Source: a virus (Duplodnaviria > Caudoviricetes). Taken from it: a stretch of DNA of 64,000 nt. A program made the position numbers. Each line of letters starts with the position of its first letter. Within the stretch, counting starts at the first letter, position 1. Of the stretch, positions 45,001 through 54,000 are shown in pieces. The DNA lies in IMG/VR virus record IMGVR_UViG_3300021256_002629, positions 32,001 through 96,000 of that record. The stretch is one strand, 5' to 3'.

Positions 45001-48000
45001 TCTTATAGTATTCGTCTCGGTAATGGTAGATTTTTTCCTATTTGTAAAGCTTTGTATGACGAGCTTAAAACAAAACAAGAAAAAATAAATTATACAGAAC
45101 AGGAGATTACAATGCTTAATGAACAGTTCCTATCTAGATCACAGAGCATATATAACGCTATTAATAATGCAATTACATCTCCTTCACCCTTAGGTAGTGC
45201 TAATAATATTACTAGACAACAACCAAACGTAAAAAATAATCCGTTTTCTCATTAAGATTTATGAATGAATTAAATATAGTGCTTAGTGCAAAGAAGATTC
45301 TATCAGTGAACTCGTTGTATAGTGCAATGATAGTGAATAAGAATGGCAGAGTTTTTCCAACAATCTATAAATCTAAGGAGGCGAAATCTGTAGAAGCTTG
45401 GATAGGAGAACAAATAAAATCCCTAAATATTCAAGATAATTTTCCTTGGATTAAAAAAGATGCGTTATATTCTTATAGTATTAATGTTATCTTTAAAAGC
45501 GGATATTTGTCTAGAGATTTGGATAATACTCTCAAATTAGTGCAGGATGGTATTTTTAGAGCACTTGAGGTTAATGATTCGAGGGTAGTTCAGATATTTG
45601 CGAAGAAGTCTTATATGCCAGGAATTGAAGAAGAAAAAATCTGTATATCATTACGAGAGTTTAGTAATCCTGATGAACTTAAATTTAACTATATTCCAAC
45701 TCCAACTTTAATTTGGACCAATGATAGTAGAGTTAAAGAGTCATTAGGTTTAAATGAGTTAGGAAAGAGGAAATTGAAGAATACTAAATATACAGTTCCT
45801 TCAAAATCTCAGGCTGATACTAAAATTTATTATATTAAAAGCGATGAGATAACCTACAATACCTTTGGTGAAATTTATCTAGACGTTATGGAAAACCTAG
45901 CATCTTCTACTGGACTGGTTTATATTGCCGTAGATGATGCTGTTAAAGACCAAGAAAAAATACAAGCTTTAGAAAATTTTTGCAAAAGGATAAAAGAGAT
46001 GTCTAGTCAGTATTCTGGGATTAGAATTAGACAAGTAGGATCCATTGCTGATATTAAAACTTGGATTGAAGAAAAATGAAAGAGAATAAGGATGAAGAAA
46101 TATTTAGAATTATAGTTTGTGGAAGTAAAGATTTTTGCAATTATGATTTATTGAAAAAGAAATGTGATTATTATATTTCATCTAGACTAGAGAAAGGGAA
46201 TAAAATAGAAATTATATCAGGCGGAGCTAAAGGAGCAGAATCTTTAGGAGAAAAATATGCAAAAGAGAAAGGATATAGTTTTAAAGTTATTCCAATTCAA
46301 TGGGACAAGTATGGAAAACGTGCTGGTTATCTCAGAAATTCAAAAATGGCTGAAATAAGTAATGCCTGTATAGCTTTTCTATGTAAGAATGAAGAAAGTA
46401 AAGCTAAAGGAATAGAAATGATGATAAATATAGCCAGAGAAAAACATCTTTTGGTTAGAGAGGTAATTAGCAAAAATGATAAATAATATAAAGTGTTTAT
46501 TATGATTGAAGAATATTTATTGAAATTACTAAAAGTGTTATTAGCAGTAGCATTACCATTTATAATGCTGTTGATAATAATTATTACTCTCCCACTATTA
46601 CTACTAAGTCTACCAATAATAGCAGTAGTAAGAGTGACTGGAGAAGGAGAAGATAGTTGAATTTTAAAGGCGCAAATTCCTAAGAAGGGGTTTGCGTTTT
46701 CTTTTCTCCTAAAACTCTGATTTAATTCTTCAAAATCCTTATTCAAGATAGATATATACATTATCTATTACCGAATAAATTTAATTATAAAATCTAATAA
46801 AAGTATTATTTATTATGATGATTGATGACGATGATTTCTACATGGATGACGACGATGGTGGTGAAGGAAGTTTGCTCATTGTCCCCACAGAAGACGAAGG
46901 TGAAGGTGGAAGTGGAGAAGGCGAGACCCAGGTAGATGATCTAGGTGGAGTAGTAGGTAAAACAGATAAAAATGCATATTCAGAAGATGGTAAAATCTCT
47001 CCGTATAGTGTGGGTTTGATGATTATTTATGATAATATTAGATCACTCGCATCTAAATCAGTGGATTGGGATCAGACTATTTTCGATATAGTTACTCAGG
47101 TACTTACTGCAGACCCATCAAATACTGAAAAAGCCTATATACAGAAAGAAGTTCGAACTCTTCTTAATAGACAAGGTAAAAGCCGAATCTTATCTACTAA
47201 TTATGACCCATCGGGATTAATGACTAGTGAGGATGTCGATGAGGATTATACAAAAACTGGTGAAGGAGCAACGGCATCAGATTTAAGTGAAGATGCTAGA
47301 AATCAAGTGGCTAGATTTATTGATTATTTAGCTAAACGTGATTTGAGCAGAGATAATTTAAGCAATAAGAAACGAAAAAGAAGACATATTCCTGCTTTTA
47401 TTATTTTCTTATTCAGTGCTGGTATGTATGATCTAATAATAAATTGTCCAACTTTGCCTGAACTATATAAGAAGGAAGTTGACAATGCCTTTAAATCTCT
47501 AACTAAATCGAAACTTGATATGGTTGAACTTTTAGCTAGAAGATATGAAGAGAAAGGTCGACCTGCGGTAGCTGAAAGAGTTCGAAAGATGGGAATTTCT
47601 TGGTTTGAAAGAGAACCTTCTGAAATTAGAACCTTAGCTTCTTATCGTGATTTGGACTTGACTTCAGAGGATGTCATGATTTACAAGGAATATAAGAATA
47701 AGTTTTCAAATATTTCAAGAAACATTACTCAAGAGGTTATGTCTAAGCTGATTGCAGTCTATCAAGAGGACGGCACTTTCGAAACATTGAAAGATAAAAC
47801 AAGGCAAGAGGCTGTGGATGAAGTTAAGAGATTATTTACAGAATGGTCTAAAAGTAATCCGATTGATTCTGAAATGGCACGAAATATTATCTGGAAGAAA
47901 ATTTAATAAACAATAAAAATTATTATGGCAGTTTCTCTAGAATTACTAACAGATGATGCTATTCTTGACTACACCAGATCAAATGGTGAAGATCATATTA

Positions 48001-51000: not shown

Positions 51001-54000
51001 TAAAAACTGGATATTAATAGAAGAATTTCTATCTGACTAATAGAAATTTACTAACCCCAACGACTATCCCGTAGAAGTCTCTTATAAGAGGCGGAGGGAG
51101 TACACTAGAAGTCTAGTGGAAATGCGGAACCCTAAGTAAGAAATTAGGTGAAGATATAGTCTCAACTATACAGAAATGTATAGCAGTTCATAAGAGAACG
51201 TATATAGAGTAACGACCTATATAGAAGAAATTGGATTTTGACGGCGATACTTGTGCTCTACAGTTAGTTCCAGAGGAGGCAGCTCAGGATACTTATGAAA
51301 AGATGAGCCCAAGATTTGTAAATGTTTATAAGAAAAACAATAAACCAATTTATCCTTTTAATCTTGAAACTTTAAATGGCTTAAACGTAGCTACTGAAGT
51401 TACTCCAGATGATCCTAAAGATATTGAAGAGCCTAGATATTTCTACAATGACTATGCAACCCTTTTGAAGGATGTAGAAGTTGAGAAGAAGATAAAGATA
51501 GGTACTCCAATTGTCTTTACTGGAAAATTAGGGGGAGTTGATTTTAAGGAAAAGAAAACTACTTACGGAAGATTGAGAATAAGCAAAATCCTAGAAACAG
51601 ATTTGGATAAGACTAAGATTCTTGACAGTCCTACAGAAGCTATTAGGGCTAAATCTGCCGGTAAGTTAAGTGAATGGATGAATGGTGATCCTAAGGGTGT
51701 TGAAAAGAGATTAGCACTTCAGAAATTTGCACTTCGAGCTGTAACACTTGCTGGAGTAGTAACCTTTGATTACAAGACCCTATTTGTAGATACTAACACA
51801 GATCTTTATAAAGAAATTTGTAAAATTGCTGATTCTAAGGATTACACAGATCAACAGAAGATTGCTATTCTTACTGAAAAATATGCAGCTTATGAGAAGG
51901 AGATTGAAAGCAAATTCTCAGAAGATCTTAAAGTTGAGTTGGATCGAGCTGGTAAGATTAAGCTGTCTTCTATCTCAGCTTTGAATATGCCACAGTTGAT
52001 TCTATCTGGTGTTGATGAGATTCCTATTATTACTAGAGGTTCACTTCTTCAGGGTTATAGTGAAAAAGATATGATTTACCACTCTGTAGAAAATAGAAGC
52101 CTTCAGTCTATTAAACAATCAGGTACTCCTACGTCAGGTTGGTTAACTCGTCAGATAACCTTCATTTTGAATAGTTTCGTTTATCATGAGGGTGTTGATG
52201 TAAATAATCCTGGTATCTTACTTCCAAGATATAAAGCTGGAGGTAGAACTGCACCAGACGGGACGTTATATCCAGAAAAGAATATAAAGGCTACTGCAGA
52301 GAGTGAGAATGATCTAGTTCCTGTTCGTTCAATTATTTCAAAGAATACTGGGGATTTGAGTACAGTAACTCCAGACCTCATTGGAACAAAATTTAAAGAC
52401 TTAACTGATGGAACTGCAATTGGCTTGTCTTTTGCAACTTCTCTTACCGAGGGTTCTACCCAGAGTGCATTAGGTTTGAAACATGGAGGTCATGAACGAA
52501 TATTGGACAAGAGTTTCTATTTAAAAGCTCCTGAAAAATGTGACTTTAGAGAAGAGGGTACTTGGCTTTACCTAAAATCAAAGAAAGGTGAGCTTAAATA
52601 TCCTAGACCTATAAATTTCGTTAATGTAGGGAAAGATAAATTTGAAAAGGGTGAAAGTGTTGGTGTAGCTTATCAAACAGTTTCTCCAATTTCACAGGTT
52701 AATACATTAATTGACTTTATAGGCGCACGTAGATCTGCTGGTTCACGTTATTATGAAAAGGACACCGTAATTATTTCAGACTGCTATGCATACGAAGATG
52801 GTGTTATCAACTATGTAGAGGAGGGTGGTTCAATAGTAGAAGTAAGGATTGGAAGTAAGTCTTACCAATACAATCCTAAATGTATATACTACTATCCTGA
52901 AGGCTCTCAAGTGAAGAAATTTGATAGAATCTGTTCTGGAGTGGTTAATATGAGCCGCGTGATTTCAGGTTTGGGTAATAATCTATCAGATATCTATCTA
53001 ATTTTTAGAAAGCAGTTTTTAACTATTTCAGATAAAGATTTCCAAAAGACTGGAGTTAGTTCTTTGTCTGGAACTCAGGAAGAACTTATAGAATTGTTAT
53101 TTAGAGGCCTTACTTTAATCGAGTATGACCCTAAGAAATTGGAGATTGAGTCAATTGAATATAAAGGATCTCAGAGAAGTATCACTAGTAGAAACTCATT
53201 CTTTACCGTATTGTCTTATGGTTATGGTAGCCAGGTTGTTAATAGAGCTATAAAAGGCGAAATTGAATTAACGGGTGATATCATGGCAGAAACAGTTCTT
53301 GGATTGCTCCTGAATAATAAGTTGGATGAAAAATAAAATATTAAAACAAACAATTAAAACAGTTATGGGAACTATTAAAATTGAACTAGACTTACCAGAG
53401 TTTGATAATAATCTTGATATAAACATTTCTTTGAAAAAGGATAATGATGGGGTTATGAAAGTATGTCCTTCTTGGACTACTACGCCAATTCCTACTACTG
53501 ATCCTTATCCTTACGTTGACCCAAATATTACTGAACCTTATTGTAATAGTAACGAACATGTAACTATATCGGGTCCAGCAAGTGGCAATGTAACGGTTAC
53601 AATGGGAAATTCAGAATCAAATCCAATTGCTGAGTCTAAGAAAGCATCAACTACTGCTAAAAAGAAATCTAGCGGCAATTTGATGGAATCCGATCTGTTT
53701 TGAAAACTTTTTTAAAAATGAAAGGTGTAAACGAAGATTATTATTATAAAATTTCAATATCCTATGAAGTTCCTTACAACATATTGGATAGTGAAGAACC
53801 TGCTGCAGTCCAAGCTAAAGAGACTCTGTATGAAAACTTGAAAACTATCATTCCTGAAAAGTATGAAAAGTTTTCTGCTAAGCTAGTTTTACATCAACTT
53901 AAAGATACTTACAATTATTTGGTTACTTATGATGCTTTTATTCGAGTTTCAGATGAACTTCCTATGGCCAGTTTAGTTGAAGCAAGAGAAGTAAGAGACA

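Follow-up and report, generated by a model that had tools for sequence, protein, structure and literature searches.

Two predicted mobile group I introns in the RNA polymerase β′ gene of an uncultured jumbo phage, one within the catalytic NADFDGD motif

Results

An RNA polymerase β′ gene in three exons

The stretch of DNA analyzed here (the window; 64,000 nucleotides) corresponds to bases 32001-96000 of the 138.5-kb IMG/VR virus record IMGVR_UViG_3300021256_002629, which is estimated to be ∼40% complete. Among its genes is one for the β′ subunit of a multisubunit RNA polymerase (RNAP), and this very probably is a single gene into which two mobile group I introns have inserted, each with an open reading frame (ORF) in its P6 loop; both would have to be removed to yield a 1115-aa β′ with an intact NADFDGD motif. 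The close relatives of the source phage are metagenome contigs of ∼290-315 kb and more distant ones reach ∼400 kb, and because relatives sit on contigs of such size the source is taken to be an uncultured jumbo phage. The related loci examined comprised 46 from IMG/VR, together with the ENA contigs and the window itself; the IMG/VR relatives from 360-400-kb contigs share ∼57-65% identity with the window β′. When the β′ exons were compared with deposited phage genomes by tblastn, no match was obtained. The gene is organized as follows.

47925-49057, + strand: β′ exon 1, 377 codons plus 2 nt, ending ...ATCGTGCT, last bases GTGCT
49058-49907, + strand: predicted group I intron 1, 850 nt, ORF in the P6 loop, terminal G at 49907
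49908-50019, + strand: β′ exon 2, 112 nt, VNRQPTLH...CQPLNA, ending ...ACGCT
50020-51233, + strand: predicted group I intron 2, 1214 nt, between NA and DFDGD, ending ...ATTG
51234-53336, + strand: β′ exon 3, 700 aa, beginning GATTTTGAC at 51234 and running from DFDGD... through the stop

With exon 3 as the query, 161 homologues were found among 5.8 billion proteins, many of them uninterrupted at 1113-1131 aa, and both intron sites were uninterrupted in 36 of the top 120 homologue clusters. One uninterrupted homologue, P0005, reads ...KQIVLVNRPPTLH...EPLNADFDGD.... Its alignment to the window by tblastn gave three high-scoring segment pairs (residues 1-376 in exon 1, 377-416 in exon 2, and 417-1115 in exon 3) that abut exactly at 376/377 and 416/417, with no residue lost or doubled. 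The exon lengths (1133 + 112 + 2103 nt) sum to 1116 codons including the stop, giving a joined β′ of 1115 aa with the junctions …KQIVL|VNRQPTLH… and …PLNA|DFDGD…; the coordinates of an earlier sequence-only reading of this DNA, and its in-frame join to a protein of that length, were thus reproduced. Exon 1 matched a PHROG RNAP subunit and, at 48825-48962, positions 3-44 of Pfam PF00623 (Rpb1 domain 2). The same family (RNA_pol_Rpb1_2) was recognized in exon 2 alone, a 37-aa segment (E 3e-7, 31.2 bits versus a cut-off of 25.3 bits), so that the domain matches exons 1 and 2 collinearly.

The catalytic subunit is obscured by gene callers, which break it into pieces of 389, 53, and 701 aa; the true β′ of the clade would be the spliced 1115-aa product. 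The sequence-only reading had stated that the ORF track misses the middle exon. This was mistaken, as the ORF list contains a 53-aa ORF (49879-50040) that includes exon 2.

A β gene (PF00562) starts 750 nt downstream of β′, at 54090-57275, and is uninterrupted; one β′ gene and one β gene were found in the source record, that is, in ∼40% of the genome. The spliced β′ (1115 aa) and β (1061 aa), together spanning 47925-57275, are each one unsplit polypeptide and far shorter than the bacterial subunits. Jumbo phages of the ΦKZ/AR9 type have split β and β′, unlike the unsplit subunits of the window.

Group I character of the two insertions

The elements of the two intron cores are listed below.

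49085-49090, + strand: intron 1 internal guide sequence (IGS) GGUACG, pairing with CGUGCU at 49052-49057; U49057·G49085 at the 5' splice site
49141-49189, + strand: intron 1 5' core; P3 at 49141-45, P4 at 49151-56/49177-82, P5 at 49160-63/49171-74, and the P6 5' strand at 49184-89
49824-49907, + strand: intron 1 3' core; P6' at 49824-29, P7 at 49836-41/49872-77, P3' at 49845-49, P8, and P9 at 49882-99
50031-50036, + strand: intron 2 IGS GGUGUU, pairing with AACGCU at 50014-50019; U50019·G50031 (Rfam P1 alignment)
51041-51233, + strand: intron 2 3' core; P6'-P9 plus a ∼50-nt 3' extension, terminal G at 51233

Both insertions follow the group I junction rules that had been proposed for them, with a U·G pair at the 5' splice site and a terminal G (49907 and 51233). 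The placement of intron 1 is ambiguous among three positions because AG is repeated at the start of the intron and of exon 2, and only 49057/49907 provides a terminal G together with U at position -1. The P/Q/R/S cores of the sequence-only reading were recovered by covariance-model and motif searches. When the four intron flanks were searched separately, RF00028 was the only Rfam family matched, on the + strand and collinearly. For intron 1, the 5' flank aligned with model positions 1-134 (22.4 bits, E 0.002) and the 3' flank with 128-253 (22.0 bits, E 0.0025); for intron 2, the corresponding matches were 1-114 (14.1 bits, E 0.6) and, at 51035-51183, 117-253 (38.7 bits, E 2.5e-8). A whole-genome RF00028 scan gave a match at 50978-51183 (E 2e-9). 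Rfam searches of the whole window and of 48900-51400 returned no group I match; the ORF insertions of 600-880 nt in the P6 loop account for this. Within the 64-kb window, exact occurrences of the R (CAACGACTAT) and S (AAGATATAGTC) motifs are confined to these two introns, R lying at 49832-41 and 51058-67 and S at 49867-77 and 51151-61. Two other classes of element were considered and set aside: inteins, given that the insertions are out of frame, stop-rich, and RNA-structured, and group II introns, given that no RF00029 match occurs in the window.

Comparison among relatives provided further evidence for intron 1. Of the related loci examined, 38 have an insertion at site 1, and its 29 distinct versions are all arranged as IGS (GGTACG), P, Q, ORF, R, S; every site-1 homologue terminates in G. 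The exon partner of the IGS is CGU(G/A)CU, and its aligned cells were 100% paired (10 of 11 representatives, the remaining one being misaligned). Covariation was assessed on 11 representatives that are <97% identical, with 51 bp of P1-P9 projected from the window sequence. In this set, 92.4% of cells were paired, compared with 32-44% when partners were slid, and double-sided (compensatory) changes were seen in 20 pairs, compared with 6-11 for slid partners; none of 1000 column shuffles attained the observed values. The compensatory changes fall in P3, P5, P6, P8, and P9. For example, P3 varies among UUUCG/CGAAA, UUUUG/CAAAA, and UUUUA/UAAAA; P6, the helix that closes the ORF loop, varies among CUAAGA/UUUUAG, UUGAAU/AUUCAA, and CUUACU/AGUAAG. 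De novo folding of the same representatives with RNAalifold recovered P1, P2, P4, P6, P7, P8, and P9 and missed P3 and P5 because the MAFFT columns were shifted; P3 of one representative (L024) is off by 1 nt in the alignment and was counted as a mismatch. Judging from its distribution, we take intron 1 to be an old resident of the clade, present at the same site in most relatives.

Some site-1 introns are longer (1694 nt), and in these, as at L022:4190-4963, the conserved ORF is followed immediately by another, of 258-261 aa, that has a clear HNH motif (...EVHHILPKCMGGTNKEDNL...). This second ORF is broken in L029, L034, and L037, and it appears to be a secondary invader.

Natural alleles of intron 2

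Contigs L002-L004, which are 99.5% identical to the window, are without exactly 50020-51233, and the limits of intron 2 are therefore fixed to the nucleotide. The intron-less allele reads AACGCC|GATTTT, as compared with AACGCT-(1214 nt)-GATTTT in the intron-bearing form, and the synonymous C-to-T change at 50019 supplies the U for the P1 U·G pair. The 747-aa protein encoded by L002-L004 (P0001) begins with the in-frame end of intron 1 and continues through exons 2 and 3, and this natural fusion of the last two exons reads ...CQPLNADFDGD.... A more distant contig, L010 (86% identical), possesses at the identical site an ORF-less, 346-nt homologue of intron 2 (L010:6380-6725) that aligned with the full RF00028 model; its score of 56.7 bits exceeds the gathering score (50 bits), and P1 falls on AACGCU|AAA.

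Three states of intron 2 coexist at >99% identity: with an intact homing endonuclease gene (HEG; contig L056), with a broken HEG (the window), and with no intron. A homing cycle in which an intron invades, its endonuclease decays, and the intron is lost would be expected to leave such a pattern, and on the basis of these alleles we consider intron 2 to be a young, currently mobile element. Position 50019 is the sole flanking single-nucleotide polymorphism (SNP) that co-segregates with intron 2; a co-conversion tract was not called, a single such position being too little. Across 47925-53336 the SNPs of the window form a mosaic in which some stretches agree with L056 and others with L002, a pattern suggestive of recombination between lineages that circulate together.

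The same motif is interrupted in other ways in relatives. A 12-nt micro-exon (GATTTTGATGGT, encoding DFDG) lies 3' of the intron 2 homologue at L010:6726-6737 and also at ∼6732-6743 of L021, and in L010 it is followed by a second group I-like intron (L010:6738-∼6998; RF00028, 43.5 bits, E 9e-10). In L010 and L021, two introns separated by 12 nt thus divide the catalytic motif into NA|DFDG|D. In L019, a ∼2.6-kb insertion at about the same β′ position as intron 2 (P0005 residues 414/422) ends in a group II domain V/VI at L019:6914-7001 (RF00029, 61.6 bits versus a 40-bit gathering score); within this family, the β′ catalytic motif is therefore targeted by both classes of intron.

Proteins encoded within the introns

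The coding regions within the two P6 loops are as follows.

49224-49823, + strand: intron 1 ORF, 199 aa, a conserved unnamed protein whose C-terminal domain resembles the GIY-YIG superfamily (T5orf172-like)
50157-50675, + strand: intron 2 HEG part 1, GIY-YIG catalytic domain, frame lost at 50634-50635
50636-51040, + strand: intron 2 HEG part 2, presumed C-terminal DNA-binding part in another frame (ORF 50621-51040)

The intron 2 ORF matched Pfam PF01541 (GIY-YIG) over residues 30-111 (27.3 bits versus a cut-off of 22.6 bits), and relatives of this HEG exhibit NUMOD3 or HTH_7 matches. Its intact 293-aa form, P0241, is encoded by L056, a contig 99.2% identical to the window that carries both introns. 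In the window, an additional GG at 50634-50635 splits the protein into 172 aa and an out-of-frame rest that is 100% identical to P0241 residues 160-293. Because it is frameshifted, the copy in the window probably cannot cut.

The intron 1 ORF is intact in all 29 distinct site-1 introns. None of its 299 homologues is informatively named, and the family is narrow (26 representative clusters among 1.84 billion). The protein gave no Pfam match even at E 10, and a PDB sequence search returned nothing useful. A distant homologue, P0283 (E 2e-9 to the intron 1 protein), exceeded the cut-offs for MUG113 (23.4 versus 22.3) and T5orf172 (22.6 versus 20), and several other relatives fell just below those cut-offs. 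An AlphaFold2 model of the protein had a predicted local distance difference test score (pLDDT) of 70.5. In a Foldseek search with this model the best matches were Slx1, UPF0213, and HIGLE, which were weak (E 0.05-0.3); a comparison with Slx1/HIGLE by VIA gave Z 5.7 and a root mean square deviation of 4.2 over 88-95 residues, values not clearly above background. GIY-YIG nucleases ranked first, weakly, in both independent structure searches, and the invariant motif G[YF]xY...KVGFSKxWxRR...E...YTEF fits the GIY-YIG superfamily. With moderate confidence, we assign the intron 1 protein as a divergent member of this superfamily and probably an endonuclease.

Discussion

Proposed splicing and mobility at the RNAP active site

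The joins made by uninterrupted homologues, the intron-less alleles, and the group I cores support the earlier proposal of two introns, one of them inside NADFDGD. In the mechanism we envisage, the pre-mRNA would self-splice by guanosine attack at U49057 and U50019, and ligation of the exons after G49907 and G51233 would restore the Mg-binding NADFDGD motif. Intron 2 would spread when its GIY-YIG enzyme cleaves intron-less alleles, with recombinational repair to follow, and the intron 1 protein may do likewise or may aid splicing. Several observations weigh against this reading. Neither intron of the window reaches the 50-bit RF00028 gathering score contiguously, the halves contributing 22.4 + 22.0 bits for intron 1 and 14.1 + 38.7 bits for intron 2. 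The intron 1 helices were defined on the window sequence, which biases the percentage paired upward in the comparison with slid partners and affects the compensatory counts less. The nuclease label of the intron 1 ORF derives from weak fold matches (Z 5.7) and a transitive Pfam match. Finally, the +GG frameshift in the intron 2 HEG could be an assembly error at a G-run.

The endonucleases might instead act as weapons that cut the intron-less β′ of co-infecting relatives, with splicing efficiency gating RNAP production. There is experimental precedent from ΦPA3/ΦKZ at the conserved aspartates of an RNAP subunit (PMC11620839); natural targets exist, given that alleles with and without intron 2 occur at >99% identity, and the intact intron 1 ORF in every relative suggests continuing selection. 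We nonetheless regard this role as rather unlikely, since purely selfish homing explains the presence/absence pattern equally well, the intron 2 HEG is frameshifted in the window, site 1 is filled in most relatives so that few targets remain, and more divergent intron-less relatives match at 28-35 of the 48 nt around both sites. A different possibility is that these are real group I introns, one or both of which need a protein cofactor, with the intron 1 ORF serving, for instance, as a maturase rather than, or besides, an endonuclease. Such a role would account for an ORF that is exceptionally conserved and never degenerate in 29 distinct introns, which is atypical of a purely selfish HEG, and intron 1 is without peripheral stabilizing elements in the Rfam alignment. 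The P3-P9 helices and the J8/7 and P7 sequences are, however, intact and covarying, no maturase-like feature was identified in the protein, and phage group I introns generally self-splice in vitro; cofactor dependence is accordingly judged improbable.

It is also conceivable that no splicing takes place, the β′ being split into separate pieces or decayed into a pseudogene with free-standing endonuclease genes between the parts. Split β and β′ are normal in the ΦKZ and AR9 groups according to the literature, and gene callers do list the pieces as separate ORFs. Against this, the active site would not survive a break between NA and DFDGD or the isolation of a 37-aa exon, the frames of exons 2 and 3 have no start of their own at the junctions, and all exons are clearly conserved. 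In addition, the group I cores are collinear and covarying, the splice-site rules are obeyed, and exons 2 and 3 are fused in near-identical alleles. Taken together, these features make an unspliced β′ scarcely credible, and the two mobile group I introns remain the reading that we favor.

The intron 1 protein also invites a more tentative proposal, which we put forward as possible and well short of likely. It may represent an undescribed family of intron-encoded nucleases, in which a divergent GIY-YIG/T5orf172-like C-terminus follows a helical N-terminus with NUMOD-like repeats, and which has been kept intact at one β′ site across a clade of gut jumbo phages. In place of the decay that is usual, this would imply ongoing selection (persistent homing, a maturase role, or interference between phages); together with the introns of relatives that lie 12 nt apart, the β′ active site would then be a long-term battleground of mobile introns.

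Relation to known systems

It is established that phage RNAP genes can contain group I introns, and metatranscriptomes have confirmed that introns of related gut jumbo phages are spliced (PMC11620839, PMC12880540, PMC12350094). The closest precedent is ΦPA3 gp210, an HNH enzyme that provides a competitive advantage and whose intron interrupts the vRNAP subunit gene gp211/209 where the conserved aspartates are encoded (Birkholz et al., Science 2024; PMC11620839). The sequence-only reading had cited this case, which proved to be both real and apt, the ΦPA3 intron likewise being located where a phage RNAP subunit has its conserved aspartates, and our finding is less novel because that case precedes it (PMC11620839). 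Both systems comprise a group I intron and a homing endonuclease at the catalytic aspartates of a jumbo-phage multisubunit RNAP gene, with intron-less homologues in related phages. They differ in the enzymes, an HNH nickase in ΦPA3 as opposed to a GIY-YIG protein (here a broken copy) in intron 2 and an unnamed, possibly T5orf172-like protein in intron 1. They differ as well in that two introns interrupt an unsplit 1115-aa β′ here, and in that the present system is known from sequence alone whereas a competition phenotype was shown for ΦPA3.

The β′ genes of AR9/PBS1 bear self-splicing introns with HEGs, as is predicted for the window; those phages differ from it in phage lineage, in HEG families, and in the unsplit state of the β′ described here. 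The Jug phages are gut phages of 360-402 kb in which essential genes are fragmented by group I introns, ∼18.5 of them per genome, and metatranscriptomes verified splicing for 37 of 76 (PMC12880540). Many of the related loci examined here similarly lie on 360-400-kb contigs with β′ in up to nine pieces; the accessible part of the Jug phage report highlights terL, nrdD, and DNA polymerase, as opposed to the introns at the β′ catalytic site considered here (PMC12880540).

For the arrangement within intron 2, the T4 td intron with I-TevI offers a parallel. In that classical phage group I intron, the ORF lies in the P6 loop and encodes a GIY-YIG catalytic domain and then a modular DNA-binding part, and the insertion falls at a conserved active-site motif. 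Intron 2 is organized in a comparable manner, by description, with NUMOD3 in its relatives; the host gene differs.

The present locus is a new instance, in a different lineage and with different intron proteins, of the mobile group I introns already documented at jumbo-phage RNAP active sites, and current concepts are unchanged because such introns were already documented. Its value lies in the intron 1 protein as a candidate new endonuclease family and in the allelic series at >99% identity, a ready system for the study of homing, and possibly of interference, in uncultured gut/rumen jumbo phages.

Additional introns in relatives and other features of the window

In relatives on 230-400-kb contigs (L013, L027, L032, L048, and others), β′ occurs in up to nine pieces, and some of the gaps are ∼160-190 nt long. 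These short gaps look like the mini group I introns of the Jug phages, the mean length of which is ∼206 nt; one weak RF00028 match was found at L013:4161-4349 (19.9 bits, E 0.017). Downstream of β′, full-length group I introns scoring 77-87 bits, above the gathering score, were detected at L005:11256-11566 and at L020:11159-11397, 13375-13607, and 13677-13901. The L005 intron precedes a called ORF with a β-subunit (Rpb2_6) domain, and two of those in L020 are only ∼70 nt apart.

Elsewhere in the window, a Pistol ribozyme match is located at 32423-32498 on the + strand (50.8 bits versus a 34.5-bit gathering score, E 2.5e-6), and a tRNA gene occupies 40146-40217 on the + strand (Rfam RF00005, 49.8 bits).

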